From contig CM119271.1 in NCBI GenBank assembly GCA_051294375.1, positions 2,060,677-2,124,676 on the forward strand: a stretch of DNA of 64,000 nt. Direction: 5' to 3'. Shown piece after piece: positions 209 to 62,978 of the stretch; position 1 is the stretch's first letter; each line of letters opens with the position of its first letter. Origin of the DNA: Paraspadella gotoi. Lineage: Eukaryota > Animalia > Chaetognatha. A model generated the notes under the pieces. It did no database searches. It worked only from the letters and a program-made list of their open reading frames with translations, and had not been told where the DNA came from. Made by a program: the position numbers and the translations under genes.

Positions 209-7109
<6,901 letters not shown>

Positions 7110-7114
<5 letters not shown>

Positions 7115-7408
7115 TAAAGGGGATCAGGGATATGATAAGCAGGTCGCGGATGTGATAAAAAGGGAATCAGGCATGTGGTAAGAAGGTATTCAGGGATGTG
7201 ATAAGAACAGGATCAGGGATGTGATAAAAAGTTAAACAGGGATGTGGTAAGAAGGGAATCAGGGATGTGATAAAAAGGGAATCAGGGATGTGGTAAGAAG
7301 GGATTCAGGGACGTGATAAGAACAGGATCAGGGATGTGATAAGACGGGAATCAGGGATGTGCAAAGAAGGGAATCAGGGATGTGATAAGAAAGGGATCAG
7401 GGATGTGA
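7110..7408. repeat. ~23-25 bp minisatellite (gggaatcagggatgtgataagaa) at the 3' end of the GPCR gene
   Basis: About 12 degenerate tandem units are visible. Confidence 0.9.
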
Positions 7409-11764: not shown

Positions 11765-11908
11765 CTTAGTTAAATACTTATTTTCACTATGGAGAGACAG
11801 TGCATAAGAAACGAAATTTTTTTTAAATTTTTGCCATATATTTCGACTTAATTCGACTTTGTTTCTTATACACTGTCTCTCCATAGTGAAAATAAGTATT
11901 TAACTAAG
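11765..11908. mobile_element. Hairpin MITE with ~45-bp terminal inverted repeats
   Basis: cttagttaaatacttattttcactatggagagacagtgcataagaaac versus gtttcttatacactgtctctccatagtgaaaataagtatttaactaag (1 mismatch). Confidence 0.8.
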
Positions 11909-34345: not shown

Positions 34346-37300
34346 TCAGAAAATGTCGTCGCCGTCTTCGTCGGAATCGAAATCGTCGTAGAGCTGACAT
34401 TTGTAGGATTCCGTCTTTACTTTAAAAGGCGCATGTTTCCACATGAACCTCGTTCTCGGAAGCGATCGTTTGCTTCTCCGATCAAAGTACTTGACGGCCG
34501 AAGCCTTGATGGATATTTGGGGGCCGCGGTACAAGAGACCCTTTTTGAATGTGATCTCGACCCCGATCTTGTTGTCCTTGCAAGAGTTGCAAAAGACCCT
34601 GGCTATTCTGTCGACTTCGCCGCCGTGATCGTCGTCGGACAAATCGTCAAACTCTTTTCTGTAAATCTTTTCCTCGAAATCATCGCCGACGAGCAGATGA
34701 TGATTGGTCTCGTTAATTTTAACGACCTCGACGGCGGGACAAATCGGCTCCTTGCAATGAGCGCAGACGATGTCGTAATCGGCCGCTTTTTCCAACCGCT
34801 TTTTCTTCTCTTCTCGCTTCTTCCTCTTCGTCACGTAGGCCTTTCTCTGTCGCTTCTCCATACTCAGCGTCCAATCGGAGAATTTCGGGCCGGAAGTTTT
34901 TTCCGCAAAAAGGGAGAGGGCATCATTCATGGCTTTGATGAGGTTTTGGTTCCGTAGCTCCCGTTGTTCTTCGGGGGATCCTTTAAATTTTTTTTTTAAT
35001 CATTATATTATGGCAACGGGGGACATGTTTGATGCCTGGGGTGTGAGGCATCTCCCGACAGCTGGCGCTCAGGGCTTTGGACCTGCAGTGACCACCCCAT
35101 GTCACTGGCGTGTTTATGCCGACACCATCACACTTTAACCAGCGTGACCGTGAGGGGATTGAACCCGGAACTCACGGTTGGTGAACGAGTACTTAGCAGT
35201 CCAAGCCAATGGGACGAGCTGAGTTTCACCAAGCTATACGGGGGGCGAATTTAGGATTCGCCACAATATCTGAAAAAATAACAGGATTTTTCATTTAGCG
35301 AACTTCCCCAAAATCTTACCGCTGATAACGAAAAGATAACACTGAGATCCTTCCCTCCGAGCTCGGCCCACTGCCTGCGTGGCGCCAATCTCGTCGCTCA
35401 CGTAGTGATATCTTATGACGACGTTGCATTGCGGGATGTCGATGCCTTCCTGGGCGATGTTGGTCGCGACCAGGAGATTGGCATCGCCACTGCGAAAACG
35501 GTCCAAGTGGGTCGTGACTTCGTGGTCGGACATCTCGGTCTTGCCGACCAAACGAACCGGATTGAGGACTGGAAAAAAAAATGTTAAACAATAAACATGA
35601 ACTAAAAATCTAAATTGTCATCCCAATGAAGTTGACATTTTTTCCACCTTCAGACAACTCCACGTCCGATTCGATGAAATCCATAATGGCCTTCGTCGTG
35701 AAACGTCGCTCCACGAGAAGAATCCCCCTCGTGTCGGGTTCGCGAAAAAGCTCCAGCAATTTTTCTTTCAGTTTCGCCAGAATCGGAGTCGGCTTTTCGT
35801 CGATTGACTGGGAAAAACTTTCGAATTTCCCTACATTCTGAAACGTAAATTTTGAAAATAGATGAAAGTTAAAACATGTAGCGGTAGTATTTCATACCCC
35901 GCTACTCGTCCGAAAATCAGCAGCGCCTATGGCGCCGGATGTAGCACGAGCTCCTCGCAACCCAAAGGACTCGGGCTCGCGGCCTGCTGATTCACAAAAG
36001 TAAAAGTGGGACGGGACGTGACGTCTAACCCACCTGTAGTGACGGACCACACACGGGAAGTTTTGGACCTTGTGTGCAACGACAGTGAACTGCTCGTGAC
36101 ATCGTCTTCCACAAACCCACATATGAGCAAAAGGCATTCTCTCATCGCCTCACCTGTCGCCAGAGGTCCTTGACGCGATTGATGTACTCAACGCTCGATT
36201 TCTCGTCCATCGCGTGAAACGGAAGTTTCTCGTTGACTTTAAGAAACTCGACGACGTCTCGACAGCGGAGAATTTTTAACAAAGAGAACGCCTTCGTAAA
36301 CAAAAGAAAGAAAAAAACTAAAAATAGTCATCGGCGCGGATAACAAATCGAGCAATTTACAACGAGTTTTACTCACCTTGCTAAACTCCATCAAGTAGCG
36401 AGCGGCTATATGTTTGTTTTGATCCGGATTCTCGGTCTCCTTCTCGACCATTCCGCCGATAGTGAGCAACGTTTCGTGCTCCCCGAGCTTAAGGTTCCGA
36501 ATATCGATGGGATCGTCGAGAAAGGACATCGCGTCCTCGACGAATCCGCGAAGGAGATTGTCGAAGAGGGCGTCGAATCTTTTTCCAACCCTAACGATCT
36601 CCTCCACACCCGGATCCGGACAATGATCTCGAAGATCCTCCCGCTCGGCCGCCGATCGAGGAAAAACGACCCTCGAGGCGTCGAGATTGTAGCACATGAG
36701 GCTCAATTGATTTAGGGCCTCAGTCGCTAAAGCTTTTCGTTCGTCGGATTTTGATTTGTCGCCTGGAAATGAGAAAAAATAGTATAAACATTAAGAGCAT
36801 GAATTTATTTTTCATCTACTAAAACGTACTACCTGCTCCTAAAGAAGCGGAGAGGCCAACGATTTGAGGAAGCCGTTGATTGTTAGGTCGATAAATGTCG
36901 TCGTTCACCTGAGAAAACAAGTTATATTTCGCGTCGGTATGTCCGTTTTTAGCATTTATAATTTTTCGAAAATCTTGCCTCTTCTTCGTTATCGAATTTC
37001 TTTAGGAGATATTGCTCCATGACTTTATTGTTCGGGTGTCCCCCGGAGGTATGGTGGCATTCATCCATGATAATTATGGAAACGTTGCGTAAATTAAAAT
37101 TGTAATCTTTGATTCGTAGAGCGTTGGCAAAAATCTGAATGTAAATTTGTAATAAATATTATGAAATTGGTGCAACCAAAACAAAAATTATCCGTTCATT
37201 TGATTAGAAGCTATTAATAAGCTATCTTGCCCCGGACTTTAGATAGGCTATGGTGGGTTAAGGCAACCTGCAATCGGCCAGTTAGTAAATATAAAAAAAA

Positions 37301-38650
37301 AAGAAAAAAGAAAAAAGTACTTGGGCTGTGCAGAAAACAACTTCGTTTTTTCTGACATTGTCCATAAATTCATCCGTGTCTTTAGCGATCCCGGTTCCCA
37401 GATTATGGGAGCTGAGACTTTGAAACGCATCTGCAAAAAAAAAAAAAAATATTAAAAAAGGGTCATGAGAAGATAATCGTGGAACCCCTACCATTCCAGT
37501 TTAATTTACCGTCATAAACCCTAAGCTGTTGCTCGGCCAAATGACGAATGGGCACCAAAAACAAGCAAAGAAACTTCTTTCCTTCCAAGGCTGCCTTAAC
37601 GCTGTGATACTTGGTAATGTACCCCGCGACGTGAGTTTTTCCTCCGCCTTATTAAAACCAAAATATATTTTATTTAATATTTTTAATATTAATCATCCCA
37701 CCGACCAACCTCGATCCTACAACACCTGTTTGTAATACGACGATACTATTCTCTCCTCTCAACCCTGGTTCCGCCAACAACTTCTGATAGTTCCGCAGGT
37801 TCGTGTTCAGTCTCAGCTGATTCAGAATTCGGTCGTGGTCGATCCCGAGGGTCGGAAGTTGTCGGAACACTTCCTCGTCGAAAACGCCGGGCGGAGCCGC
37901 GATTCGATTCGAGGAGCGGCGAAGGAGGGACACGTCGGGCCCGGCGCTCGAACGGTTCGACGAGGAGGATTCGGACGAAGCGCCGTCGACCTTCAGCGAG
38001 GACAACTCGACGGATAGTTCGAGGCGAACATCGATCGCCGGCGTCGGAGGATGAACCCAATCGACGCCTCTGTCCGATCTAACGACAGCGCCGTCCGATC
38101 TAACGGTGGCGCCGTCTGATCGAAACTCCTCGGAAGCGGTAGATGTTTCTCGCGTATCTACAATCCGTTTGATCTCTGTTTCGTCGGACTCGTCATAATC
38201 AAATTGCAGGCGATGACTAGAAACATCGCCAAGCGACAGAGAGGCCTGCGAAACCGACGAAGCGAGGGGGACATCTCGGGAAGGAGACCCCGTTTGTCCG
38301 GCAAGAGGGTCGGAAGGTGCGGGGTTTTCAAATACATCAAAGCCTTGATATAATAACGCGCCAGCGCAGGGAGGTTCATTGTTGAGACGGAGTTTGTCCC
38401 CTTCGAAAAATCTGTCGACCAAATCGAGTCGGTGAACGTTATTGAGCGCTTGGCGAATGACGGAGCAATCGTGCTCAGTGATGGAGCCATCCTTGATAAG
38501 AAAATTAAATAATTCGAAAGGCTTTTTGAATTGTTCCAACTTTCCAGTGGGAACATGTTTTTGAATCAAAAACTTGATTTCTTTAAACTGTTCATCAGTC
38601 AACTCCTCTGATATTTTGAGCAAAGTTACGAAAATTCCATCCAGAGCCAT
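34346..38650 (-). CDS. DED-containing RIG-I-like receptor, copy 2
   Basis: DED with HRLDL; LRNYQ, GGGKT, MDECHHT, LPQIVGLSASLG, LLVATNIAQEGIDIPQC, QAVGRAR; CTD CAHC...CNSC; acidic tail DDFDSDEDGDD. Confidence 0.92.
35009..35265 (-). mobile_element. Solo LTR (257 bp) of a tRNA-headed, twister-containing TRIM family, inside RLR2 intron 34981-35319
   Basis: The - strand starts TGTGGCGAATcctaaATTCGCC and ends GTTGCCATA; 4-bp TSD ATAT (35005-35008, 35266-35269); A-box-like TGGCTTGGACTG and B-box GGTTCAATCCC; module order matches the LTRs at 54942 and 55436. Confidence 0.85.
35061..35143 (-). ncRNA. Twister ribozyme, P5-type permutation with P3
   Basis: GCUGGU uaaa GUGU GA UGG UGUCGGCA UAA ACAC GCC AGUGAC-augggguG-GUCACU g CAGG UCCAAAGC CCUG agc GCCAGC. 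P5, P2 (ACAC/GUGU), P3, P4 (CAGG/CCUG) and pseudoknot T1 (CCA/UGG) all pair; predicted cleavage U35116|A35115. Confidence 0.88.
35877..36121 (+). mobile_element. Degenerate or related LTR-like insertion in an RLR2 intron
   Basis: Starts TGTAGCGG...CCGCTAC hairpin then cgtccg, like the TRIM LTR; tRNA-like segment sharing caacccaaagg with the 60.5-kb element; partial twister-like core GUGG GA CGG GACG-UGA-CGUC UAA CCCAC. 3' end and TSD unclear. Confidence 0.5.
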
Positions 38651-38913
38651 GAGCTACTAAATTCATCCCTTCAAAGCCATAAATATTTACAGCCGAAAAC
38701 GAAGCTGTGAATACTGATCAACAAACAAAAAAAAAGAATTTGTTTCACCCAGTAAATAGCAGTAAAAACTCTTTAGACAAGGAAATAATCCCTGCAAATT
38801 ATCACACTGAACATCACAGAAAGATGTCCCAAAGACGTTTATATTTAAAAAAAAGTACATTAATACTAATTAATATAACCAAACTTTACAAGTTTCAAAA
38901 GGCGAAGAAAACA

Positions 38914-41900
38914 CTAATCCTCATCGGAATCGCTAAGTTCCGGCGGTTTGATCCTGAAAGACTCCGTCTCGATTCGAAACGGGGCTTTGTCCCACGCGAA
39001 ATAGGACTTGGGTTCGGCACGACCTCCTTCCTTTCTGTACTTGACGCTTCTGGCCGCGATACAAATCTGAGGTCCTCGGAATCTGATGCCTTTGTTGTAT
39101 GCAATTTCGACTCCGACTTTCTTCGTCTTGCATTCGCCGCAATAAATTCTGATGAAGAATGATTGTATAGTTTAAAATTCTACAAGAATCCAGGTCCACA
39201 AAAAACTTTCCTAACGCGTACCCTTCGTCTCCCGGTGGCCTGTAAATCCTATCTTCAATCGCTTCTTTGTCCCTGACAAGATGGTTGCTGGTCTCCTCGA
39301 TCTTGACTATCTCATCCGCGCCGCACAATGGATGGTGACACCCGGCGCAGACAATCCAGTAATCGTCAGGGTCGTTTTTTGCTCTCGAGCTCTTGCATTT
39401 CTTTTTGCCAGACGCGTGTTCTTGTGTCTCTAAAACCTTCTTCTTCCATTTCGTAGTGTCGTCGTTTTTACATATTTTGGCGTATTGAACCAAAGCGTCC
39501 TTCATAGCCACTATTAATCGACGATTGTGTTCTTCGTGTTTTTGCTCGGGAGATCCTGAAAGAGTGTAACCAAGGATTACAAATCATGTCAATTCTCTAA
39601 CAGATTAAACCACAAACCCCTCGTTCACCTTGAATAACCAGTAAATAACACTGAGAATCTTCCTTCCTCGCTCTACCGACCGCCTGCGTGGCTCCAATCT
39701 CGTTGCTGACGAAATGATAACGAATGACGAAGTTGCATTGCGGAATGTCGATTCCTTCTTGAGCAATGTCCGTCGCCACCAACAAATTGCATTCTCCTCT
39801 ACGGAATCGTTCCAGGTTTGTCAGTCCAACGTGATCCGACATTTCCGTTTGACCCACGAAACGACAGGGGCGAATCACTGAGAGAAATGTTTCGTATTTG
39901 GCATCGAATAATAACGTCGTCCGCGCCGAACCAAAACTAGAATCTAGAACCTTTGGACAATTCCTCATCTCGCGCCACAAATTCTTCGATAGCTTCGGTA
40001 GAGAAGCGTTGTTGAATGAGAATAATCCCGCGGGATTCCGGAAGAGAGAATAAATGTATCAATAGCTCTTTAAGCTTCTTCAATATGGGATTTAAAGTTG
40101 CATCCACAGACTTGGCATTTGTCCGCAAATCCGGAAGATTCTGTGAAAAAAAAAATATTACGCTTAAAACTATTTATATTTTCCAAAGCTAGTAACGGAA
40201 TAAGCTGTCGTAAAACCAGGAAACGCGTTAAAAGTAATTATTTTAACCTTTTCCCATAGGCCTTTCACGTGATTAATATACTCTTTGTTCGATATCGTCT
40301 CTTGATGATTGGGAGAAAAAGGAAGATCTTTGTTGTTTTCCAGAAACTGAACCACGTCCCAGCATCGCAGAATTTTTAAATGCGAAAAAGCCTGTTCGAA
40401 TCGATAAGGAATAACATAAATAAATTAAATTGTATTCATCGGTAATTTTGACAAAGTTGCCTTGCCTTGCTAAACTCCTTGAGATAGTCGGCGGCGATTT
40501 TTCTCTGCTTATCATCGGCTTCAATTTCTCTCTCGATAATTTTGTCGATCTGCTTCAAGCCTTCGTCGTCGCCGAGGGAGATCGTCTTCACGTCGACGAC
40601 GGGCTCTTCGAAAAATCCCAGGGCCTCCGTGACGAAGCGATGCAGGCATCGGTAGAAATCCTGGTTGGGTCTCGTTATGACGGGAATGATTTCCTCCTCG
40701 GCCTGATCGTGACAGTGTTTACTGAGGCTGGCTTTTTCCGCCTCCGTTCGCGGGAAGACCACGATGGAACTGTCCAGATTTGCGCAAATGAGCAGCAGCT
40801 GTTGGAAAGCTTGTTTCGACAAGTCTTCTCGTTCTTCCGACTTGGTTTTGTCGCCTGGATGGAGAATGTCAATTTTTTTTCTCCTTGTAATTCGCTTTTT
40901 TAAAAATTCTTTTATTTACAAATCATACCAGCTCCTAACGAGGCAGAAAGTCCAATTATCTGAGGAAGATCCCGAACTCTTTTTCCACCCTGGACATAGA
41001 CGGGACTGATTGAAAAATTGGGAGGACTTTTCTGGGATCGCGGCCAATCTCGAAAATTTTACCTTTTTGTCATTCATATAATGGGCCATGGCCCGCTGGT
41101 TGGGATGCCCTCCTGAAGTGTGATGACATTCATCCATGATAATCAAAGACAGTTTGCTCATGTCAATCCTTTTATCATTGAGAGCATTAACCAAAATCTA
41201 ATTAAGTTATTCGCAAAATAATTAATCAGAATTGAATCTAAAGACGCAAAAAACTTTAAAATACCTGCGCCGTGCAAAATACCACTTCTTTGTTTCTCCC
41301 TTCCTTTTGTATATTCATTAATTCATCAGTATCTTTCGCAATACTAGTCCCAAAGCCTTGAAACGCTTCTGAGTAAACAAACGGCACAATGTTCATTGTT
41401 CAAAACAGGATAATTGGTTTCTTTCTACGATCAAGCATTACTCTAAAATGTACCTTGGTAAACCCTCTGCTGTTGTCCGGCCAAATGACGAATGGGAACC
41501 AAAAAAAGGCACAGAAATGATTTCCTATCAACAACTGCCTTCATGCTGTGATACCTCGTGATGTAGGCGGCAATGTGAGTCTTTCCCCCACCTAATATTC
41601 AATATATTAAGTTTAAGATTTATTCCCAAATTAAAAAAACAAAAACAATAACCAACCACAACGTCGCTACCGGTTTGCAAGACGACGATGCTATTCTCCC
41701 CTCTGAGACCCGGCTCCGCCATTGACTTTTGGTAATCCCTCATTTCCGCCGAAAACTTCAATTGCTTGAGAATTCGATCGTGATCGATCCGGCCGTCGTC
41801 GAGCGTCGGCAGTTTTCGAAACACGTTTTCGTCGATGGCGAAGTCAGGACTGCTTGGGTCGGCGTCGGAAGCTGCGTCGGACTCATATTTTTTCGTTCCA

Positions 41901-42809
41901 GTGATCTCAAATTCACTCGGCCCTGCATTCGTAAAAACCGCTGAATCCTGAAGCAGATTAACAGAGTTTTAATACTTTCGACATTTCTTAAAACGTCTTT
42001 AAAAAAAACCGCACCCGAGGGCAGGCTCCGAGATTATCCAAAGAGACTTCAACCGCGTTGGCCAAGACGACCCCGCCGTCCGCTTTAACCTCTTCGGCGG
42101 CTGGAGGGACTCTTCGCGGTCCCGCGCTGTCAGAAAAGACCTCTCTTCCGGCATCAATGTCCGAAAGGATAGCCGGTCGAGCGTCCGCGGAATCCGCGAC
42201 ACGTTTGACCTCCGTGTCCGACGATTCAAAGTCGATCGGCTTCAGAGTTTCCATTCGCAGATCATAAGGAAGCTCGTCGACGGAATTCGGCGGAGCGCTT
42301 CCCTCGGAGACGCTCGTCGCGGCATGAGAGATAGAAGATGCCAGTGGAGCGGTTGAAGATGCCGCTCGCGAGACGGACGAACCCGCTCGAGAGACGGTCG
42401 ACGCTGGCTGCGTGGGTTCGGTGGAGGGAAAGACTCGTACGGGGCTTTGAAACATGTCGCATGGTTCTTCAGTGGGATAGAAGTCTCCGCAATCCTGCGG
42501 CATCGTCTCGCCGAAAGAGCAGTCGTCGTTGAGTCTCAACCTGTTGCCGTTGAAGAATTTCGAGACCAAATCGTTTCGACCCACGTGACGGAGAGCATCA
42601 CGCAACGCCGAATAGTCTTCATATTTAATTACTTCGTTCTCCTTTAACAACTTAAACAATGCTTTCGCGTCTAAACATTTTTCCATCTGACGATCCCCAA
42701 GTTGATCTTGGAACAAAAACTTTACGCCTTCGAAATCTTCTTGAGTTACCTCCTTGGAAAGGCTATACAATTTAACTAAGTTAGGGTTTAGGTTGAAGGA
42801 AGCAGCCAT
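38914..42809 (-). CDS. DED-containing RIG-I-like receptor, copy 3
   Basis: DED with GRNDL; MRDYQ, GGGKT, IIMDECHHT, LPQIIGLSASLG, LLVATDIAQEGIDIPQC, QAVGRAR; CTD CAGC...CGEC; ends ELSDSDED-stop at 38914. Confidence 0.92.
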
Positions 42810-43303
42810 GCTTTTTTCCGATTTCCGTTTTACATTATTAATAAAATTATCACATATGACATTTCTGAAAAGTACCGTGAATTAAGGTAAAATAACAGAA
42901 AAAAATTAAAACAATATTTAAAAAAAAATCTTTTGTCAAAGTACAAAAATAATACATGTGTAAATAAATAAATATGACAATAAGATTATTTAAAGAACAC
43001 AATATAGAAAAACATGAGTGCAGTTAGTATAATAAATTTTTAAAATCATATTAATTAGACAATTGCTGGATCGTTAAAAAAAAGAACTTTGTTTGGATCT
43101 AATAAATTCCCCTTTTCCCTACGAAGAAAAAATTCTAAGTCCCGTTATCAAAAAATCCAATCCCATTTCCATTGAGTAAAATTTTAAATTGGAGTATGTA
43201 TGTAACTTTCTGAAGTAAAAATGACTTTTCTTTTTAAAACTAAATATCTATTAATACATGCATACCATCTATTGTTAGGAAATCAGCACAAAATATATTA
43301 CTA

Positions 43304-43329
43304 TGTGGCGGTATATTCACACCGCCTCA
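43304..43329 (+). mobile_element. 26-bp 5' stub of the TRIM LTR
   Basis: tgtggcggtatattcacaccgcctca matches LTR positions 1-26 at 54942 with one difference. Confidence 0.7.
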
Positions 43330-43603
43330 ACTAGCTAAATATATATGTTCAATGTGATAACTTAAACCATAATTTTTAAATTTAATGTTAAGATCATTAA
43401 CACGACTTCCTAATTTTATTTCCAAATTTTTTTTTTTTTTTTTTTTCTGAAAAGAAAACAGAGCAAACAAATAATTGCGGGAATGGTTGCAAAAATATCT
43501 TATGTCAACAATAAACGAGAACAAATAAGGGGAAGATAAAAATGAAAAAGAAGAAGAGATCGGGAGACAAAGTCAAGCAACTCCGTCCACATGAGACGGC
43601 AAC

Positions 43604-44011
43604 TCAATCACGGGACTTCGGGAAGCGAGCAGGTCCCCGTTCTCGCGCTGAAGGCAGACAAAGTCTCTCAAAAAAGTGCTTAGACGTTTTGCCGATATCT
43701 AAGCCTGCATTCGTTGCTAGGAGTTTGGCGAAATCTTTTAAGTTTGAGAAAGCATCCAGGTCCCATGCCCCGAAGGTAGTAACAACCAGAGGGATGAAGC
43801 CAACGTCGGCCGGCAGTTTGCCTTCGTACTTAGCATGTTTGGCCTGGCGAGCTCGTTCCAGGGCATAGGTGGGGTTGAGGACGGTATGACCAAAACAGTC
43901 CTGGCGAAGGGGAGAGGTGACAGTAACATCAAAGGCTGTGGTGGTCTTGTTCCGACATCTTTTCCAACCACGGATTGTGAAATCCCCAGGTCTAGAGGCA
44001 TCATCCGCCAT
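43604..44011 (-). mobile_element. 3' fragment of a CRE-like non-LTR retrotransposon (restriction-like endonuclease domain)
   Basis: RPGD...AFDVTVTSPL...AKHAKY...FIPLVVTTFGAW matches the RPxD...DxT...K..KY...FxPLxxETxGxW pattern of CRE/R2-group REL endonucleases. Confidence 0.75.
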
Positions 44012-44014
44012 CCA

Positions 44015-44440
44015 TCATCCAAAAATGGACGAACCCACTTGGGAGTCGGTCGACGGATTTGAAACAAGTAGCGTGGATTTGGAGGAAGGAAAAGCTTGTA
44101 CTGGGCTTTGAAACATTTCGCATTCTTCCTGCGGATAATTGGGCAGCGCTGTCTTGCCAAAAAAGCTGTCGTCATTGAGTTTCAGAATAAAGAATTTCGA
44201 CACTAAATCGTTTCTAACCAGGTGACTGAGAGCATCGCGCAGTGCAAAATAGTCATCATCCTTAATTACTTCATTCATTTTTAACAACTTAAACAATGCT
44301 GCAGCGTCGGAACATTTTTCCATTGGACGCACCGGAAGTTGATCTTGAAACATAAATTTTAAGTCCCCAAATTCTTCTAGCGTCAACTCCTTGGAAAGTA
44401 GCAACAACTACACAAAGCTAGGATTTATCACAGAAGCCAT
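44015..44440 (-). pseudogene. Truncated fourth DED-RLR copy (DED plus start of linker), paralogue of copy 3
   Basis: MASVINPSFV-TAG-LLLLSKELTLEEFGDLKFMFQDQL...VRNDLVSKFF is close to the copy 3 DED; in-frame stop at codon 11; breaks off at the CRE-like fragment; upstream flank resembles 42810-43010. Confidence 0.85.
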
Positions 44441-44650
44441 GTTTCTTTCTGTAGGACTTATGTTTCACATCGTCTGTAAAGTCATTATAGTTCTGTAAAG
44501 TAACGAGAGTAGATCAAGAGAAAACGAATCAAAAATTTAAAAAAAAACCAAAAAAAACGCAAAAAAATCCATTGTCAACGTACAAAAAAAAATACGTGTA
44601 TAAATAAAGTGAAAATATTAACTGTAGAAGACATGAAGAAAGACGATCCC

Positions 44651-47340
44651 TTAAGTCTCCCCTCTTTCAACGACGTCGTCCATCAACAACAGCCTGTCGA
44701 CTTCCTTCATTTCCGCCCAACCATTTTCAGAAATCCTTAAACCCACCCCGGAATTCACGTCGGAACCGGTCGAGCCAACTCCCGATTCAATTTCCGAACC
44801 CCAGAGACACAACCCGGAATCAACGTCAGAACCTTTCGAGGCCTCCGTCCCGTCATCTAACTTCAAAAGCGGCAATTCCTTATCCAGACTCTGGACCGTT
44901 CTCTCCATCAAGTTTAACCCCAAACGCGTCTTGACTCCGTCGTCGTCTCGGCCTTTTTCCTCTTCGTTGTCGAAGAGGCCGCCTTTCTCCAGCAGGTTTA
45001 AATAAAAAGAATCCACTTGCTGCTTGGCGTACTCGACCACTTCGGACACCAGGGGGCAGTAGTTACTGGCATTACGTCGAAAGTAGACGCGTCCCATCTC
45101 GTCCTCGTGCGTTGGAGCGATGTTGGGGCACCTAGGACCTGGCCACCGGATTGGTTAAACAAGGAGAGAGCGATAAGTTTAACGGAAATAACAACAAACA
45201 AACCATTATTGCGTCGATTAATTTAGCAATTCACCCACCAAAAGGATTAACGTTTCTCGGATCGTCGGGATTCCACGCGAAAATCTCCACCTCGACGATA
45301 TATTGGCTAGGGAGGCGTCCAAACTCCAGCAGGGCTACGGCGTCTTTGTCGCACCAGCAATAATGGGGCGTCCTGAATAATGATGAGATTTGAAAAGTGG
45401 GTAGACGCTACTAATTTGCAATCATCTTTTCATTCTCCCCGTCAACGAGGACTTGCCTAAATTTGTGCCGCTTCTTGGCGCCAGTCTCGAGGTGAGACTC
45501 TTTTTCGAAAGATCCGAGCGAGGCGATCTCCGCCTCCAGATCGATCCCTTCCAAAACTGGATGGAGCACGAGGGGAGGGTTTAAGAAACGGGTTAAGTTA
45601 TTAGAGGGCGAATTGCTACATGATGCGAAAAAAAATAGAAAAAGAAAAGCAAGACCATAGTTTCCCACCCCATCACCTGGAACAAACGACAATTGATAGC
45701 GGTGAGGCAAAACTGGAGGATTGTAACGCGTGAACAAGTCTTGCAATTGTCCTCGAACGTGGTCTGACGGATGTAAGTCGTTTCGATAACAATTCAAAAA
45801 TGCTCAAAATTTCCTTTTTTTTTTAATTTCTCTCACCAATTTGATACTGAGTCAGAATAAAACCCTTTATGGCTCCCGTATCTAGCACTCCCAAATATAT
45901 TGTTCCTCCTCGCTAAAAGAAGAAAAAAGGGAATAGACTAATCAAGAAATAACAAAAAATCCTAATTTCTTGAAAGCAACTTTGCCAGGTCATGGACGTT
46001 AGACCTGACTGTTAAGAAAAGCGTTGAGGGCAGAGGACACTGGCTTACGACTTCCGCCACGCCCTTGTTTCCCGCGACTTCTCTCGGGCATCTCGTCGTC
46101 GGCAAACGAACGGTGACCTGAGAAACGTTTTCCATGGTTACGTTTTTTAGGTTGTAAACATTTTAAACATACTAAACAACCTTTGCAGTTTTAGCGTCAC
46201 GAATAAATAGAGCGAACATACGGCAACATTACCCGTTCATAACAAGGGGTCATCCCCCACCCTGCCTCCTACCGCCCCCTTCCACCCCCTATCCACTCTA
46301 GAACCTTTGAACTCGTGACACTGATCCTCGTCGATAGGTAAGATTTCGTCCTTGACGTAGTACTGTCGCCCGTGCTCGTCCTCGCGTTTCGCTTTGGACG
46401 ATAACGCCACTATGAGAGATTCTAGGGTTCTTCCGCCATCTATCGGATCGTACTTCTTGTGGGCGGTACCAACATGGCGGCGCCCGGGGCGAACCGGGGC
46501 GGCGTCGGCGGATTCGGGGTCTCGACGTAGCGTCGTCACGTCCTGCGCTCGTCGTATGTCCGTGTTGAGAGAGTACGTAACTTGGCCGGCGCAGAAAGGC
46601 ACAGGCGAGCCGTAAGTGGCGCTCAAGGGCGCCGGCGACGACGTCTCGTTCCGATGGATTCTACTCGGCGTCGGATTTTCATCCAATCCCAACCCACGAT
46701 TGGACGACGCCGAAGCGACGGACGGTGCCGGACTGAAACGACCGACGCTGTCTTCGTTCGTCGCTCGAACGCCTATGCCGCGACCCCTGCCGATCGAACG
46801 CGCCTCGCCGCCGAGAGGTTTGCCCATTTCCTTGGCGCGCTCCTGAGAGTTGGCGTAACGGAAGCCTTCGGTGCGGTAAAAGGCGTCGGTGGAGGCGACG
46901 GAGGCGTCGGAAAACTCAGAGTCGCTAAACTCGTGACGCTGAGAGGAAGACGACGTCCGCCACTCGATGCGGTTGGCGGCGACGCGATCGCGGAGGCGGC
47001 GACGGGAGTCGGGGCCTTCGTAAGGATCGGAGACGGAAAGAGAGACGACGGTCGAGACGTCGGGTGCGACTTGGAGGGACGGATCCTGGGGAACCAGGTT
47101 TGTTTTTGTTTAATTTCTAACTTTTATATAACTAAGTGATGGTATAAATCGTGGCACTAAATACTGTAGCTAACATCTCAGACGATTTCTTTACAAACGT
47201 TTAGTCTTTACTTCAACTAACTTTATCCCAATCCGAAGAGCGTGGATTAAATCCCGGCGGCGGACGATGAAAAGAAGCCGGGAATCCCGGCGGAGGCGTC
47301 TCGAAACGCGGAGGAAATCCGGCCGGAAAATTCATCGTTC
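44651..47340 (-). CDS. Schlafen-like AlbA_2-domain protein, multi-exon; start approximate
   Basis: YYVKDEILPIDEDQCHEFKG|HRSF, AFLNS, IYLGVLDTG, HVRGQLQDLFTRYNPPV...LSFVP, HYCWCD, IVEVEI, GRVYFRRNASN; long low-complexity N-terminus. Confidence 0.75.
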
Positions 47341-48823: not shown

Positions 48824-50382
48824 TTATTGGCCCTCCTGATCCTCTTGGCCGTCTTCGGCGCCGCCGGCCGCGTCCGACGTCCACAGCGTCAGGTTGTCCC
48901 GGAGCAGTTGCATGATCAACGTGCTGTCCTTGTAGGAATCCTCGTTCAGGGTGTCCAACTCGGCGATCGCATCGTCGAAGGCCTGGAAGCGGAGGGGAGT
49001 TGAGAGGTAACGATTAGCAAAGCATGAAAATAAAATAAAGAAAAGGAGAAAAAGGAATATACAAGTCAAGAGATATTAAGTAGATTAACGACGAACGAAA
49101 ACCAAAAAAGACACGAAAAAAATAACGTTTTATAATATTCAAATCAGATCGTGAAGAACTCATTTGAAATAAACCACAAAATACAAACGCTATTTAAGTT
49201 CTTCAATCTTATCTTGAAATAATTTGAAAAAACTTTTGGACTGCTTGACATTAGTACTTACATCCTTAGCCAGTTTGCATGCTTGATCGGGTGCGTTTAT
49301 AATTTCGTAATAGAAGACGGAAAAATTGAGAGCCAGACCGAGCCTGAAAGGTTTTTATTTGGGGGGGGAGGGGGAGAGGAGGCGAAAGTTTATGTCCAAC
49401 AGGGGAAATACGGTTGCAACCTGAAACTTGATAGATTCTCCAATGACCACAACTCGTCTCTCACCTGATTGGGTGAGTTGTGGTCATGTTTTCCTTGGCC
49501 GACGTCATTGCCACTTCGTAGGCGCAGCGGGATTTCTCGGTGACGTCGGTCCGGTCGCTCCCGGGTCCCGCCACTTCGGCCAGGTAACGGAAGTAGTCGC
49601 CCTTCATCTTCTGGTAGAAGACTTTGCTCTCGCTGTTGCTCGCCTAACAAAGGAAAATAAAGATACCAATTTTATATAAGTTAATTCACAAACAATAATA
49701 ATAATTGTAATAATTAAATTTAATATTAATTTAACACTATTCTTAATAAAAATATAATATAATAATTTTAATAATCAATACAACACGATTCATTCACGAA
49801 GTTAAAGGCAAGTAGTTTTGATATTTGATATTTAACACCACTATCTACAATCTACTAAAAAAACGTTTTTCCCCTCTAAAAAGCAAAGAGAACCCTAGCG
49901 GTCAAACCTCCCAAACCACCCCACACCCCGTTCCCACGGTACGGACATCTTTAATGAGGTGATCGTCGAGAAGGGACAAGACGTCTTGGCAAATCTTCTT
50001 GAGTTCCTCCTCGATCTTTTCCCTGTATTCCTTGGCCATGGCCTGTTTCTTCTCGCTCCCTTCAGTCTTCTGCTCGATGGAGTGAATGACGCGCCAGGAG
50101 GAGCGACGGGCGCCGACCACGTTCTTGTAGGCGACGGAGAGGAGGTTGCGCTCCTCGTTGGACAACTCTCCGCCCTGTTTCGTCACCTCCTTCATGGCGG
50201 CCGCCATGTCGTCGTACCTGTGGGGAAAGAGTGAAACGTTTTAGTTTAAGATTCAATAATTCTAAGGAAAAAACATATAACGATGAATCCAAAAGTCATT
50301 CGTTTCCCCACACACCCACTCACCTTTCGGCTTGTTCGGCCAATTTCGCCCGCGCGACATTGTCTTCCTTCGAGGTCGACAT
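48824..50382 (-). CDS. 14-3-3 protein (zeta-like)
   Basis: AKLAEQAER|[97 protein letters not shown]. Confidence 0.97.
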
Positions 50383-51249
50383 TTTTTTCGGGAAAATTTA
50401 AAAAGAGGAAAGAAGAGAAAAAAAATGTCCTATGGAGCCGAAAATAAAGGCAAATCGCCGAAAATCTGTCCAAAAAACCTGAAAAAGAAAATAGGAAAAA
50501 TAAAAAAAATAAAAAAAAACGGATCGTCGTTTATCAATAAAAGAATGGACAAAATTTTTCACATCCAATAACGGGAGTACAAACTCGTTTATTACGAATT
50601 GTTTAAAATTTAAATTATCATAACAAACAAACAAGCTTCGCGGGAGTGAAACTAACGAGCCGAGGGAAACTCGCGGTCTATTTTTCAAATGAGTCAAAAT
50701 AACATATGCTAAATCGTCTTATCTGTGAATTAGCCGAGCGTTCTGACACCAGAGTATAAATTACGTACAAAAATTTATAAATAATCAAAAACTATTTTTG
50801 ACGGGCGAGCACAGACTTAGTTAGTTTCATTTAACATAAAACGTACCCGTTAGCTTTAATATAAAAACTGTATAGACCTCAAGAATCAAGTGAAGGCAGA
50901 TATGGTACATGTTGCAGTATGACTAGGAATAAAAACAAAGCGTTTAAATTATCATTCCACGAAATGACAGCGCGGCGGAAAAAAAAAGGCACTTCGGTAA
51001 TTGTTTGTTTTTCATGGTGAGAGAGAGTAGTAAAGAAACTTGATAAATTACTACAAAAAAAGTCGTCAAGCCAAAAGTGAAAACACTACTGATTCTAATT
51101 GTGCTTATTTTTTTCAAAATATCGTTAGATTTCGGCACGTTTGCGATATCCCCTTGGCCGCCCAGAAAGATCGAGGATCAGGCAACAAAGTCAAAACATC
51201 TAACATCCGGGGGTCCGCTGGTCCCTCCCTCGATAGCGGGGTGGAGAAA

Positions 51250-54213
51250 CTAAGCGGGTCCCACTTTGTTGATGAGTTCGTCGCAAATTGCCGTCAACTC
51301 CTCGTTCTCCCTCGTCTTGGACTGAAGGCTGCGCTCGAGCATGCCGCACTTGAGCTCCACCTTTCGAAGGGCGGCCTAAATAAAAGGATTAAAGACTAAA
51401 GTCTAAATAAATAGATATTCTATAGATGTTGTAAATGGATAGATAATCTTTCATAACATTTTTCTTCCTTGAAAAGCCGAACTCCTTCCCACTCTTCCGA
51501 ACCTGCAACTTTGCAATCTCAGCAGCGGAGCGTTTCTTCTCGGCGTCGATCTCTTGATTAGCGGCTTCCAACTTGTCCTCGGCGTGATTCTTTAACACTT
51601 GATAACGCTCCTGCTCCTTGAGGAGACGCTGTCGCCAATCTTCGGCGCACGCCTGGAAAAGAGATGGATCGCCGACATCAAACACATCACAAAGCAGAAA
51701 CTTCGCTCAATGACAGGATACGAACTTACCTTCAAAGCCTCTTCGTTGTGCTGATAGCCCTCGATCAACGTCTTCATTTTGTCATAGCGACGGTGAAGGT
51801 CGGAGAAAGACCTCTCCACCGAATTCAACTCCTCCAGAGTCGCGTCGCGTTCTTTGATGGCGAAAGCCAAAGAGTTGCTGGAAATTAAAGAAACAATTTG
51901 CTTCATAAATTTACAAGTCATGACGACCCAGACTTCCGCAGTAACTCACCTGTAGCCATCGGCCGTGCTTTCCCTGTCGGCGATGAGTTGCTGGATCGTC
52001 TTCTCGTATTCTTCGAGGCACTGGGCCATCTCTTCCTGTTGAGGGGCAAGGGCGTCGTACTCCGTCTGCTGCGATTCCAACCGCTGCAGCAACTCGTCCT
52101 CGCGCTGCTTGAAAAGACGCTTCTCCTCTTCGAAGGCCTTTTCTCGCTCGAGGAGTTTGGCCTCGTGAAGGAGACGCATTTCTTGAAGGCGCATCTTGTT
52201 GGCGTCGGCGGAGGACGATTTCGTAGATGCGACCGGACCATCCTTTGCGCGACGATCCACGACGGCCGGGCTTCCGGTCAGCAGATCGACGCCTTGCCCG
52301 GCAACCGTATGCTCTTCCTTCGTAGGCGACTCCCTGGCTGAACCGGAATAACGAAGCTCCAAATCATCGAGCAGGGACTCTTTGTCTCCAACGAAGTGAT
52401 CGAGAGCGGGTTTGAAGTCCTCGTCGGAGAGTTCTTCGGAAATCTGAGGTTTCCCAGTAACGATGAGATCTGGGGCGACTGTCGAGGAGCGTCCATTACG
52501 ACTTAAGGGTGGAGATGGGGCCGAAGAGGTCGGGGGGCTATTGTCTTCGAGGTTCTGCGGAGAGTCGGGCAGAGAAGAAGGATCATCATCGGCGCTGACT
52601 GTCTCCTCTCCTTTAGACTTCAGTGCGGCCTTTTTCACCGCCATCATTTCCCGTATTTTCGTGGAAGGTTTTTTAGGCCCGCGCTTCGTTTCTTTTATAG
52701 ACTTCGGTTTCTCGGCTACCGAATCCTCGTCGGTCTCTTTCCCGACGGCTTTGAATGGAGTTTCCGTTTTGTCCGGCGTTTCCGGAGGATGAGACTCAAT
52801 AAGTTTGGGCTCTACCTGTTTCTTTACTTCAAGATTTTTCGCTTTTAACTCGCCAACCTCGTCCGAGGGTTGATGAGCTTTCGACGCTGGTTTAGTTTCG
52901 TGTTCAGTTTCAGCAACAGATTTCTCCGAAGCGTCGTCATCAATCATCAAGGATTTTTTCGGTTTGAAAGGATCTTCGATGGAATCGTAATCAATCTCCA
53001 CGACCTTCGCTTCTTTTTCTCGTTTCGCGGAGACCGCGTTGGCGGAACCACTTCCGCCGTCGTCCATCAAACATTTTTTCGACTTGAACGGATCCTCTAT
53101 CGAATCGTAGTTAATTTCGGGAGGAGAGTTTGTAGCACCGTCGTCCATCATCAGGGATTTTTTGGCTTTGAAAGGATCCTCGATGGAATCAAAGTCCATC
53201 TCGGGCGGAGGCGGCGACGCCGGGGTCTTGGGTTTCTTTTTCTTCTTCCGAACGAAAGTCGCCGACGCGGGTTTGTTCCGTTCAAACTCGGGCGCAGCGA
53301 TTGGAGGGGAACTTGTTTCGCTATCTACTTTTTTCGCGTCCGCGTCGGTGATTTCGCGAGTGTCGTTCGTATTTTGGGTCGGCGAATCAAGGGTCACGGC
53401 TTCCGGTTTTGAGTCTTTCTCTTCAGTCTTAGAAAATCCGTTGCTGACCTTATGTACGTCCTCTGTACCGTCGATCGGCGCATCTGCCGCCGAGGCGTCT
53501 CGCGGCGATGAAGGACCCTTCGTGTCGACTTCGATCGCATCGATCGCCGGCGTAGCGTCGTCGTCCATCTTCAGCGCCCTCTTCGGTTTAAAAGGATCTT
53601 CGATGGCGTCAAAATCTATTTTCGACGCCGGCGGCGGTGCGGCGCCATCGTCGTCCATCCTCAGCGCTTTTTTGGGTTTAAACGGATCGTCGATGGCGTC
53701 GAAATCTATTTCCGGAGGCGGTGGTCGCGTCTCGGCGTCGACATCGCGGGCTGGAGGCTTCTTCTTCTTCTTCTTGGTAAAAGTGGAAGTTTTGAGCGGC
53801 TTCGAGGCGGAAGTCGCGGCAGAGGAAGAGGGAGAAGCGTCCCTGATTCGTGAAGGAGATTCGGACTCTCTCGGCGCTGACGGCATCGACGCGGCCGGGG
53901 CGTAGTTCCGATTAACGTCGGCGTCGTTATCAAGAACTTCCGGCCCGGCCGCAGCGTTAATGGCGGCGTGTTTTTCGGCGACGACGTCGCGCGAACGAGT
54001 TCCCGCCTTGGATTTTTTCGTCGCCGACGACGTTGGGTTCTTCGGCGCTTGTGGTTGTTCGCGCGAGACGACGAATGTGGTTGGTTTCGACGGCGGCGAA
54101 TTGGACATGAGCGACTTCCGCGGTTGGAAGGGATCCATGCTCTCGTCAAAATCGTCCCAGTTGAAGGTGTAGCTTCCCCGAGGGAGAGGAGCTTCCTGCG
54201 GATCGTCCGCCAT
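51250..54213 (-). CDS. TACC: Transforming acidic coiled-coil (TACC) protein
   Basis: PRGSYTFNWDDFD, about six FDxIxDPFKPKK repeats; TACC domain LEEYEKTIQQLI, LNSVERSFSDLHRRYDKMK, EQERYQVLKNHAEDKL, ENEELTAICDELI. Confidence 0.92.
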
Positions 54214-54372
54214 GACGCGGCTAAAGATTTTGCGGGGAGGAAAAAGGCAATCAACGACATGGTAAATAACTAAAAAGTCGAGCATCAACGACGATTAACA
54301 AGAACGAAATATAAATTAACAATTTTTTTTTCTTTCTAGATCGAGTTCAGTAATAAAAAGTTGATGTCATCT

Positions 54373-59446
<5,074 letters not shown>

Positions 59447-60061
59447 TTCTTATTTTATTATGAAAAAAAAAGGAGCACAATCGGAAGGTAGGGTGTGTAA
59501 AGAGAGCGTTAACGATTTAATAATATACTTGAAAATATCGAAAATAATTCTAGGCTTCAAAACAAATAAATAAGCTATGAATCTACCATCGATCATCAGA
59601 AGGAAATATAAGCACAATGAATCAGAAGCAACAAAAGAAACCTTTGTTCGATTAAGTTGTAAAAAATAGATCGAAAAACACAGGAGCCTTTCTGGCAAAA
59701 TCGACTAGTACAGTAGAAAAGAACTTTAAATTACTTTTTTTCTTTCTTTGCAACACAAATCCTGCAAGTGAAAAGAAAATCGGGACATTCGAAAGTTCTT
59801 TAATTAGATCACAAAATGACGAAGAGAGAAACAAAGACGTGGAAATACGTAAATTTTTCCCCAAATACTTTTTGCTATCGTTTTCAATTTAACGATTTTT
59901 ATACTTATTGTTACAAAAAATATTTTAAAACGCTTTAAATATTAGCTCAGAGGCTTAAATCCTTTTCATTTTTACCTAGTCAATTAGACATTAAACGACT
60001 ACTATTTTAGTTAACCACTAATAAAAATCACTTCCTCTCCTCTTAAGCAACTTACAAAGAA

Positions 60062-62978
60062 CTACTCTTCGACGAATAGCGGCAAATCGCCGACATCGCG
60101 AGAGACGGAAAAGTTTTCCAACTCATTTCGACTCTCCTTCCACATTCGATCAGCGTGAGCCAAATCCGCGAGTTCCGCGCGGCGAAAGAAGCTGCGTCGC
60201 AGATCGGCCGCCACTGCGTCGCCGCGCCAGGCGCCGTCGCGGCGCGGACGCCCGAGGCTCCGCCAAGCGTTTCGCTTGGCCTCTTCGAAGGCATCAGTTT
60301 TTAAGGCAAGAGCGGCGTTTGTGGGAGCGGAGGCGCGAGTCGCGGCGGCGCGAGTCGAGGAGGCGCGGCTTTTGATGAGAGACTCGGGAGAGTAAAATTC
60401 TTGTCGCCAAAAGTACAATTGCAACATGTTGGCGGCGACGGAAGGCGAAACACGTGAGGAGGGGTTCCTAAAAATAATGTAAGAAATTAACATAGTATGC
60501 TGGACTAAAATCCACCAACCGTTCATCAGCGGCCATTGGTGCCGGAGGCAAGTCATTCGCCTCCCAACCCAAAGGTCCGGGGTTCTAGCCCGGTGGTCGC
60601 CTAGCAGTTTAGAGGGACGGGGCGCTTAACCCGCCTGTAACTCGGTGTTACAGCCTGATCCGAAGCTCAGGGACTGCTTAGTGCTTATATTGAACGGTTC
60701 TATCACTAACTCATAATAATAATTACCGTCTCTTCAATAGAATTATAAACTCCTGTAAGCCTGTAATCGGTACAAACCTCATCAACAAATGAACGAGAAT
60801 GTCCATCTCCAATGGCGCGCCTCCTTGGAGCACCGGAAGATCGAGAAGGCTGCTGCCATGTTGGTCCTCCAACTCGTCCTCGACGTCATTGTCAAAAAGT
60901 TGCAGAGCCAAACGACCCAAGTCCCAAGAGTCTTTGTCGACGGCGACTTTGGTCGAAGGCGAAATCTGAAGAGATACCAAAACAAAGTGACATTATTGAG
61001 ATCTTATCTCGTCGAAGCTAATGATTTCGACCACCTCTTTAAAGTTAGATAACAGCAGTCGATGATGACGCCCCTCTCCTCCGTTGAGATCGACGAAAAA
61101 ACTGGACGGAGAGATGGCGCCGTGAGCGATTCCGTTCGCGTGAAGATTCGCCACAGCCTCAAGACTTTGAAGAAACATCGAGACCCTTAAATCGGCCCCG
61201 GCGTCGCCCGTCTGCAGCAGAAACTCTTCCAACGTCAGATCAAACTTGGGCGTGACCACGAATTCTCGCGGGACGATCCTCCCGGCGCCGGAGGGCTCGG
61301 TCGTCGCTCCTTCCCTAAGGCTAACGATCCGACCTTCGCAGACGAAAGGGTGACCGGCGAGAGCGCCCGAAGAAAAACGTTTCGGCTCCTCGATCAATTC
61401 CTCCACGAGCGCCAACTCGAAAATTTTTTTCCGTCTCCCGACGGCGTCGCCGGCCAATCGATCCAAAGGCAAGGCGCAGAACTGAGTCTTGGGCGGTCGG
61501 CGTCGAGTCGAGGTCTTTCCTTCGCGAAGATTTATCATCGCTCGACGAACCCATCGCGAGACGCGGAGGGAAAAAGAGGATTGGTGAGAAGAGAAACGCG
61601 AAGACAAATCTATTTCCATGTCGTCCGTCTTTTCGCTGCGCCACTCGAGGGCGCTCAGAGATTTTGCGCTACGTCTATCGTTTTCGCTTTCTCCGCACAG
61701 TTCGTCGTCGCCGCGAGATTCGTCTTCTCCTTTCGACATCCGCTCGAAAGACGCCGAACCTTCGACTAACGGAAAACCCCCTGCAACGGACACGCCCACC
61801 GGGGAAGGCGAAAAGGGGATCTTGAGGTCGAAGGGGTTTATATCCGGGTGGACGGAGGGGAAAATGTTTTCTTCGTAGAGGTCGGACAAGGAGCCAAAGC
61901 TGATAAGTTAATTGTAACAACATTAAAATTAGTTTGTTCTACTAGTATTACATTAGGCAAAGTATTAAAATATGCTTAAAATTCAGACGACTGATTCATT
62001 TTCCAACGTAGTACGAGTTCATATTACATCTTGAAGGGTATATTACCTTTCGCGAATAATGTCAAAGCTTGAGGCGGCGGAGGCGGCGTCGTCAGCCGAA
62101 ACCCGCGGAGGAGCTCTCGCCTCCTCATCTTTTTCTTCTTCGGACTCCTCAACTACACCGATTTCAACGGCTTCGCCGACCGAACTCCTCGTCCACGCCA
62201 ATTTGGCGCCTTGGGCGAGGACATTCAAGCGTGATTCAGCGACGTCCGCGGCGTCTCCTCCAACGACAAAGTCCTTGAGCGTCTCAAAGTCGACGAAGTG
62301 ACGACGTTTTAAGTGCGGGAAGCTAGGATGGGCGAGAGGCTCATCGGGGGCGGTGAGTCGAGTGAATTGAGCGGCGGCGACGCGGCGGCAGAAGGGATTG
62401 CGGATCCAACGGGAGAGGAGTCTGGATCAAAATCAAACATTTACCCAGCTGGTTTTACATAGATCAAGTCAGTAACATGTTTTACAGCATTTGAATTAAA
62501 TATAATTTAATTCAACAATTTCATTTACATAAAGTAGTGTAGAGTAGTGTAGAGTTGACAAAAATTCAGGACCTGTGTCACTTCTTGGTATTAAATTGTA
62601 AATTCACTGTTATCATTAGTATAATAATTGATAATAATTGGTTGGTTTGGGACACTTAGCAATATTGTTTAATACTAATTCGGTATTATTATAGGAACCA
62701 TTCCTAGAACAATCCACACCTTACCACTTTTTTTGAAAACTACATCCAAAACCAAATCACATCCTCATTCCTCACCTGACGATGAATGCCTCTCGCGGTC
62801 GCGAGTAATCGACGACACGCTCGGCCAAACTCTTCATCGTCTCCAGCTTCCTCTCCACCGCCTTCCTCCTCTCCGCCTCCTCCTCCGCTCTCTTCCTCTT
62901 CTTCCTCGGGTGATCATTGACGCAGCGGAGGGAGGCGTCAACGACGCGGCGTTGCGCGCCCGCCGAGTGGAACGCCAT
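60062..62978 (-). CDS. PEAK/PINK1-related pseudokinase, multi-exon; linkage of the 5' exons is tentative
   Basis: LQSLEAVANLHANGIAHGAISPSSFFV (HRD replaced by HGA), RLLLSNFK (DFG replaced by NFK), DSWDLGRLALQL, LL...NPSSRVSPSVAANMLQLYFW followed by a C-terminal helical extension. Confidence 0.65.
60496..60715 (+). mobile_element. tRNA-headed, twister-containing element (divergent solo LTR or SINE-like) in a pseudokinase intron, antisense to the host
   Basis: TATG...CATA ends, flanks atag/ataa; tRNA-like acceptor stem GCGGCCAT/GTGGTCGC (60529-60600), A-box-like TGGTGCCGGAGG, B-box-like GGTTCTAGCCC; enclosing stem aaccgttca/tgaacggtt. Confidence 0.7.
60603..60678 (+). ncRNA. Twister ribozyme (P5-type), P2 imperfect
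   Basis: AGCAGUU ua GAGG GA CGG GGCGCU UAA CCC GCC UGUAAC-ucggu-GUUACA g CCUGA UCCGAAGC UCAGG GACUGCU; T1 CCG/CGG; predicted cleavage U60627|A60628. Confidence 0.75.

Follow-up and report, generated by a model that had tools for sequence, protein, structure and literature searches.

The 64,000-nucleotide stretch of the Paraspadella gotoi genome analysed here (GenBank assembly GCA_051294375.1, contig CM119271.1, positions 2,060,677 to 2,124,676; hereafter the window) carries compact, intron-rich genes, including a fucosyltransferase gene, a TBC-domain gene and three RIG-I-like genes that bear death-effector domains (DEDs). It also holds short repeated elements in which a preliminary description had recognized three divergent families with a common RNA architecture, composed of a 5' hairpin, a tRNA-like promoter, a twister ribozyme and a 3' hairpin. 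We distinguish five families, A to E, with the long terminal repeat (LTR) copies A, B0, B1, B2, C, D1-D3, E and F. A complete element of family B, which we interpret as a terminal-repeat retrotransposon in miniature (TRIM), is located antisense inside an intron of a DEAD-box-helicase-like gene and is composed as follows.

54942..55690, plus strand: complete family-B TRIM of 749 bp (two LTRs around a 239-bp internal region)
54938-54941 and 55691-55694: its 4-bp target-site duplication, CCAT
54942..55196, plus strand: 5' LTR (B1), 255 bp, with 5' hairpin (54945-54961), twister (55064-55144) and 3' hairpin (55150-55172)
54995-55005 and 55030-55039: promoter-like motifs of B1, box-A-like and degenerate box-B-like, respectively
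55064..55144, plus strand: type-P5 twister fold of B1, with palindromic P1 segment 55082-55089 and predicted cut U55090/A55091
55199..55211, plus strand: sequence resembling a primer-binding site (PBS), led by TGG, 2 nt past the 5' LTR, position read from the sequence
55234..55330, plus strand: three identical 28-nt hairpin repeats of the internal region, starting at 55234, 55272 and 55303
55421..55435, plus strand: expected position of the polypurine tract (PPT), weak, 7 of 15 bases being purines
55436..55690, plus strand: 3' LTR (B2), 100% identical to B1, with the fold at 55558 and predicted cut U55584/A55585
55091..55584, plus strand: predicted unit-length RNA, 494 nt between the two predicted cut sites, which would contain exactly one LTR if circularised

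The two 255-bp LTRs are identical direct terminal repeats, the total length of 749 bp is below 1 kb, no open reading frame (ORF) of at least 150 amino acids overlaps the complete element, and the TGG-led sequence 2 nt after the 5' LTR is a candidate PBS. Duplications of 4 bp were found at all three intact elements checked (CCAT for B, ATAT for A and ATAG for C). On these sequence features the repeats are the LTRs of miniature, non-coding LTR retrotransposons, i.e. of TRIMs. Besides the three 28-nt hairpins, the interior of the B element (55234-55330) displays a CT microsatellite, and this region is a possible packaging signal. The other copies in the window are the following.

35009..35265, minus strand: solo LTR A, duplication ATAT, sense in an intron of a RIG-I-like gene; box-A-like motif 35197-35208, exact box B 35155-35165, twister 35061-35143 with palindromic P1 35117-35124 and predicted cut U35116/A35115
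60496..60736, plus strand: solo LTR C, duplication ATAG, antisense within an intron; 5' hairpin 60501-60514, enclosing helix 60517-60525/60691-60699, twister 60603-60678 with palindromic P1 60621-60626 and predicted cut U60627/A60628
60529..60601, plus strand: degenerate full-length tRNA-like sequence in C
54647..54890, plus strand: B0, older 5'-truncated family-B LTR, 92% identical to B1, with altered P2 and P4
43304..43329, plus strand: F, fragment of a family-B LTR (its first 26 nt), ending in CA, with ACTA on either side
55733..55983, plus strand: D1, decayed LTR of the fourth family; twister 55868-55930 with palindromic P1 55887-55892, a triloop replacing the long P3 and T2 formed by A-U/C-G
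37155..37264, minus strand: D2, 3' remnant of family D
22284..22379, plus strand: D3, remnant of family D
35877..36113, plus strand: E, decayed C-related LTR in an intron, 3' end tentative; 5' hairpin, near-palindromic P1 36015-36025, damaged L4

The count therefore amounts to 10 LTR copies or remnants in five groups, where six to seven copies had been reported before, and C extends to 60736 instead of the earlier 60715, as determined from loose contig ends and the ATAG duplication. B0, B, D1, C, E and D3 lie antisense to the genes in whose introns they reside, and A and D2 lie in sense orientation, numbers that are too small to interpret. B0, the complete B element and D1 (54647-55983) crowd into a single intron that measures about 1.5 kb, which suggests a hotspot of insertion, and the ACTA on both flanks of fragment F resembles a complete duplication surrounding a partial copy.

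Contigs from 5 of 14 sequencing runs were compared with the window, bearing in mind that contig depth gives no copy number. The region 54300-56000 was matched by 19,191 contigs in run X1, 24,721 in X4, 7,335 in X5 and 1,506 in X9, and family C by 7,027 (X1), 2,280 (X5), 886 (X9) and 2 (X10) contigs. The end of the B LTR was confirmed by unrelated AT-rich flanks that begin at 55197 in 97 (X1), 107 (X4) and 76 (X5) contigs. Similarly, loose contig ends placed the C ends 60496/60736 with 76/58 (X1), 66/34 (X5) and 21/11 (X9) contigs. Thousands of matching contigs from four runs, together with dozens to hundreds of unrelated flanks at LTR ends, argue that the elements constitute large dispersed families; with families D and E extending the set, the large and diversified superfamily envisaged in the preliminary description is supported. 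At the 5' end of C, 27 contigs of X1 match four further bases (60492-60495), compared with 76 that stop there; this hints at a target preference for ATAG-like sites, the duplications found being CCAT, ATAT, ATAG and ACTA. None of the runs listed as containing these sequences is registered as RNA. In X9, which we guess to be an RNA run, a spliced contig was found across the intron that harbors C, and contigs cannot reveal ends, strand or level; the junction of a circle would, moreover, look the same in them as the genomic LTR. Among variants in family-C contigs, 0 of 12 fell into the invariant core or the palindrome and 1 into T1, which is uninformative since about one would be expected.

The order of the conserved parts in these LTRs (P5, P2, GA, T1, P1, UAA, P2, T2, P3, P4, L4, P4, P5) matches that of the type-P5 twister, the conserved L1 and L4 nucleotides (UAA, GA, U..AAG) are present, P5 comprises 6-7 bp, and the fold occupies both LTRs of the B element, at 55064 and 55558. 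As originally observed, the families barely align (45 bp between A and B with BLASTN; nhmmer E=5e-7 for A-B and E=0.04-0.3 for A-C), and this observation largely holds, as the T1, P4 and P5 pairings quoted for A, B and C are exact, all three contain the invariant UAA, GCC, GA and AAGC, and all three carry CCATTGG. The accompanying statement that every helix covaries is somewhat too strong: A and B do not differ in T2 or in the P3 stem, B has C.A in P2 and A.C in P4, C has a bulged P2 of 3 nt, and in none of the families does P1 form a stable hairpin. A compensatory T2 change, missing between A and B, is supplied by family D, where A-U replaces G-C. Counted over A, B, C and D1, T1 contributes 12 pairs and T2 contributes 8, every one of them Watson-Crick, and both partners have changed at two positions of T1 and at one of T2; the pair table was derived from a regex-based alignment, as MAFFT left the twister helices unaligned. 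Compensatory changes over four families support selection on the twister fold, as had been proposed. The GATGCC..GGCATC hairpin and the GTTGCCATA end are indeed common to A and B, so that a shared 3' hairpin architecture applies to these two, but the GATGCC hairpin is absent from C.

When a pairing descriptor, composed after the elements had been seen, was applied to the window, it recovered 4 sites (A, B1, B2 and C) versus 30 in 1,267 dinucleotide-preserving shuffles of 500-nt blocks (0.024 per shuffled window), which places the fold beyond chance copies. Below its gathering score of 37.6, the Rfam Twister-P5 model (RF02684) matched A with 22.2 bits (E=0.012) and D1 with 22.7 bits. For B a partial match to twister-P1 (15.2 bits) was obtained and for C no twister match, and the Rfam scans gave no match to a hammerhead family. 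Folding z-scores of the LTRs were -3.7 for A, -3.1 for B and -1.6 for C. We conclude that each LTR family carries a type-P5 twister fold, for which self-cleavage is predicted. Outside this genome, generic twister patterns matched mostly by chance: of 119 viral loci that show the bare motif, 2 satisfy a relaxed filter on pairing, and one of four further viral matches has a palindromic linker, its P2 having failed. Among the metagenome pattern matches, 7 of 78 pass P2 and P4, six of these being type-P1-like by eye, and a metagenome scan with the 3'-end pattern shared by A and B yielded 0 matches. Five metagenome and viral contigs (L125, L130, L172, L199 and L200) contain tandem, closely spaced twister-like units.

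Upstream of the twister, a hairpin opens each of A, B, C and E, and a tRNA-like arm and the twister are jointly enclosed by a helix in A, B and C. The tRNA-like promoter of the preliminary description is only partly confirmed, by a weak full-length tRNA match in C and by box motifs in A and B, but not in D. In C, 60529-60601 aligns with positions 1-71 of the Rfam tRNA model at 10.6 bits (E=8.7), short of the 29 bits required for gathering, and relaxed ARAGORN labels the sequence Gly-CCC-like with a score that was attained by 7 of 300 shuffles. ARAGORN at default settings reported 0 tRNAs, and no tRNA match was obtained for A or B. In A an exact box B follows the box-A-like motif by about 44 nt; in B the box A is good and the box B poor, and both boxes are absent from D1. 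Combined box A and B scores were attained by 3 (A), 3 (B1), 2 (B0), 25 (C), 151 (E) and 131 (D1) of 200 shuffles, the best B1 match being misplaced, as it falls on the twister. No run of four T residues occurs inside B; this is uninformative, as 78% of 500 shuffles likewise lack one. Judged by these motifs, an RNA polymerase III promoter in the LTR is plausible. Alternatively, CCATTGG could presumably be the inverted CCAAT box of an RNA polymerase II promoter.

When G-U pairs are allowed, the segment between T1 and UAA, which corresponds to P1, is self-complementary over its full length in all four families A-D; it is 6-8 nt long and loopless, and its centre differs in each case (UCGG, CUAG, GCGC and GGCC). 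The preliminary description did not mention this palindrome, which is relevant to the mechanism. In E, a related near-palindrome folds as a 4-bp hairpin. For the four palindromes no hairpin is predicted, as only 1-2 bp would form within one molecule, whereas as dimers they would form 6-8 bp with homodimer energies of -8 to -11 kcal/mol. A self-complementary centre was present in 12 of the 68 linkers taken from bare motif matches at loci of viruses and metagenomes, and four palindromes out of four would occur by chance with a probability of about 0.001 if they were independent. Of the 78 metagenome matches, L156 (922-990, minus strand) is the sole P5-type fold and also the sole one with a fully palindromic linker, a perfect 6-nt palindrome in P1; it is located on a repeat-rich, eukaryote-like contig whose context ends 75 nt upstream. 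If the helices are enforced, the swapped fold of two LTRs beats two monomers by 8.9 kcal/mol, and a modelled two-LTR transcript with palindrome pairing would adopt a nested fold with two swapped active sites. Amphibian hammerheads capped by a palindromic tetraloop are described as needing dimers in the portion of PMC7229834 available. By analogy with such dimeric hammerheads, the P1 palindromes indicate, with about even odds, that the two LTRs together form a 'double twister' from two copies.

Taking these features together, and by analogy with known retrozymes, we propose with a probability of roughly 0.6 that the non-coding TRIMs with twister folds in their LTRs work as animal LTR retrozymes. 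The fixed position of the ribozyme in both LTRs is the basis for supposing, as suggested before, that it serves transposition. Transcription would begin upstream of the first twister, probably at the tRNA-derived promoter, and the twisters would be very likely to cut at U/A 55090/1 and 55584/5. The palindromes of the two LTRs may then pair, each active site combining the 5' half of one LTR with the 3' half of the other, and full-length transcripts would as a consequence be cut well, intronic solo LTRs and the finished circle poorly; for these two steps jointly the balance is even. Closure of the 494-nt product, with its 5'-OH and cyclic-phosphate ends, by a host RtcB-type ligase appears likely by analogy with animal hammerhead retrozymes, whose RNAs are closed by RtcB according to the available part of PMC7229834. 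The 494-nt unit holds one LTR's worth of sequence plus the PBS and the PPT position. Because both LTR twisters would be cut, the linear 494-nt RNA would lack terminal redundancy, and a helper Ty3/gypsy-type reverse transcriptase primed at the PBS could read across the circle junction, which would replace this redundancy; a circle serving as full template for a tRNA-primed reverse transcriptase is the model published for plant retrozymes (PMC4918200, available portion). The helper integrase would make the 4-bp duplication, and it is this duplication that points to a Ty3/gypsy-type helper, as argued for animal Helenus. Cleavage, circle and helper are at this stage predictions from DNA sequence. 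A stronger version, in which an animal LTR-retrozyme superfamily depends on an obligate double twister and a tRNA-derived promoter, so that only full-length elements cut and circularise, is tentative and has somewhat less than an even chance.

Several observations weigh against the retrozyme interpretation. The PPT is weak, with 7 purines among the last 15 bases before the 3' LTR, including a GGGGA run; the LTR ends depart from TG..CA (TG..TA in A and B, TA..CA in C); the PBS, led by TGG, is a putative one; and within the 64-kb window a complete element is seen once, in one family only. No reverse-transcriptase family was detected in the 23 of 40 long window ORFs scanned, nor in a six-frame motif check. 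At gathering thresholds Rfam returned zero matches in the window. The predicted circle is moderately structured (58% paired, z=-1.6, 3 of 60 shuffles equally good), below the more than 70% pairing reported for retrozyme RNAs (PMC4918200, in the part available). With regard to the palindromes, the four are not fully independent, as the families share ancestry, and in the free ensemble, with pseudoknots ignored, the inter-LTR palindrome pairing has a probability of 0.01, while P5 within each LTR dominates (0.6). P1 is moreover described as dispensable for twister cleavage (PMC5408937, available portion), so that monomers may cut.

These last points favor the best of the alternatives, an unlikely one nonetheless, in which the twisters cut as monomers and the palindrome has another function, most likely as a kissing or dimerisation site through which two RNAs are joined and packaged into helper particles; a circle could still be formed. 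Retroviral dimer-initiation sites pair RNAs for packaging in this manner. In addition, A and B could close a P1 stem of 2 bp with a tetraloop, and P1 of E can fold into its own hairpin. However, in L156 as in every family the palindrome lies exactly in the P1 slot that adjoins the cut site, the position that the palindromic loop holds in dimer-dependent hammerheads (PMC7229834, available portion), and solo LTR A, in sense orientation within a host intron, has an intact fold. Still less probable is that the ribozymes merely trim a linear RNA, removing a leader or a read-through tail, and that the element moves as LTR retrotransposons ordinarily do, through a linear RNA and with no circle. In the case of Perere-3, twisters trim the RNA at its 5' end according to the accessible portion of PMC8501958, a read-through transcript would already possess long terminal redundancy, and the modest structure of the predicted circle is compatible with this option. 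In contrast, identical ribozymes would cut both LTRs and leave no terminal redundancy for strand transfer, and plant retrozymes of the same layout accumulate as circles (PMC4918200, part available). There is only a slim chance that a tRNA-headed twister SINE (short interspersed nuclear element) landed in an ancestral LTR and that the fold is a passenger whose cleavage the TRIM does not need. Such an insertion of a SINE in an LTR was proposed as the origin of Helenus (PMC10886601, available portion) and several copies are decayed (B0, D1-D3 and E), but core residues and helices are kept in four barely alignable families with both-sided changes in two pseudoknots, and the youngest element, the one with identical LTRs, retains the fold. 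Chance folding in GC-rich repeats, for which the lack of a gathering-level Rfam match and the after-the-fact descriptor could be quoted, is hardly credible in view of the excess over shuffles and since Rfam independently places the P5 model on A and D1.

Comparison of the proposed animal LTR retrozymes with known systems was based on the available portions of the papers cited. Like plant LTR retrozymes (Cervera, Urbina and de la Pena 2016, PMC4918200), the elements are non-coding, carry a ribozyme fold in both LTRs, a putative PBS and 4-bp duplications, occur as solo LTRs and have two cut sites, here predicted, that bound a unit-length RNA. Unlike these, they reside in an animal, their ribozyme is a type-P5 twister and not a type III hammerhead, although the hammerhead is a criterion of the LTR-retrozyme family, LTRs (241-257 bp) and unit (494 nt) are smaller than in plants (300-400 bp and 600-1000 nt), the PBS is not tRNA-Met-like by eye, the PPT is weak, the 5' half is tRNA-like, and accumulation as circles, reported for the plant elements, is here predicted from the sequence. 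Helenus/TRIMp3 elements (Kojima 2024, PMC10886601) are likewise TRIMs of less than 1 kb with tRNA-like LTR sequence and a PBS, here a putative one, after the 5' LTR, and animal Helenus makes the same 4-bp duplication. However, the animal Helenus LTRs examined end in TG..CA and have their tRNA part near the 3' end, whereas here the ribozyme comes after a more decayed tRNA-like part; TA ends are likewise seen in a few Helenus LTRs of fungi. The idea that Helenus elements themselves hold twisters was unsupported, as the word twister occurs 0 times in PMC10886601, and in its sequence file twister L4 motifs were absent or out of context, although line breaks may hide some.

With type-P5 twisters (RF02684, clan CL00120; PMC5408937) the folds share P2, P4, T1, T2, the U/A site, an open P5 and the conserved G and A ahead of T1, but they score below gathering, their P1 is a loopless palindrome of 6-8 nt, T1 departs from CCC/GGG, and C, D and E have a bulged 3-nt P2. 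Metazoan non-LTR retrozymes with dimer-dependent type I hammerheads (PMC7229834) are also animal, non-coding and present in two copies per transcript, with a weak helix and palindromic loop adjoining the cut site; they are, however, described as tandem repeats without LTR, PBS or PPT. The twister T-variants of Perere-3, an RTE non-LTR element of Schistosoma mansoni (PMC8501958), are also tied to a retroelement, but they are of type P1 and located 5'-terminally in an autonomous non-LTR element, with one cut, no LTR and no circle. Retroelement twisters have been reported for non-LTR RTE elements (PMC8501958, PMC7761336, PMC9695139; parts available), and LTR retrozymes have been described from plants and with hammerheads. 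A search of mostly open-access literature, without Repbase or Dfam annotation, recovered neither an LTR element carrying a twister nor a naturally dimeric twister; a TRIM, a tRNA-like head and a twister were not found joined there either. A twister-type LTR retrozyme in an animal therefore appears to be a new combination, although prior annotation is possible. A concrete candidate role for twisters is provided by the element, from which a circular RNA of 494 nt is predicted. Dimeric twisters, if true, would explain how the animal tolerates very many intronic ribozyme copies, and an obligate double twister would represent the first animal LTR retrozyme, the first one with a twister and a natural dimeric mode of ribozyme action. 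As standard Rfam thresholds miss all these copies, such elements may be overlooked elsewhere.

The window displays some further features. Between about 29000 and 42900 on the minus strand, three RIG-I-like helicase genes are arranged in tandem, each preceded by a DED exon instead of CARDs; the DED and helicase exons may belong to one transcript. An AT-rich hairpin at 11770-11903, with well-paired arms and a weak match to a miRNA family (E=0.8), could be a small inverted-repeat element. Minisatellites occur at 5022-5721 (period 64 nt), 7125-7446 (23 nt) and 56284-56451 (34 nt).

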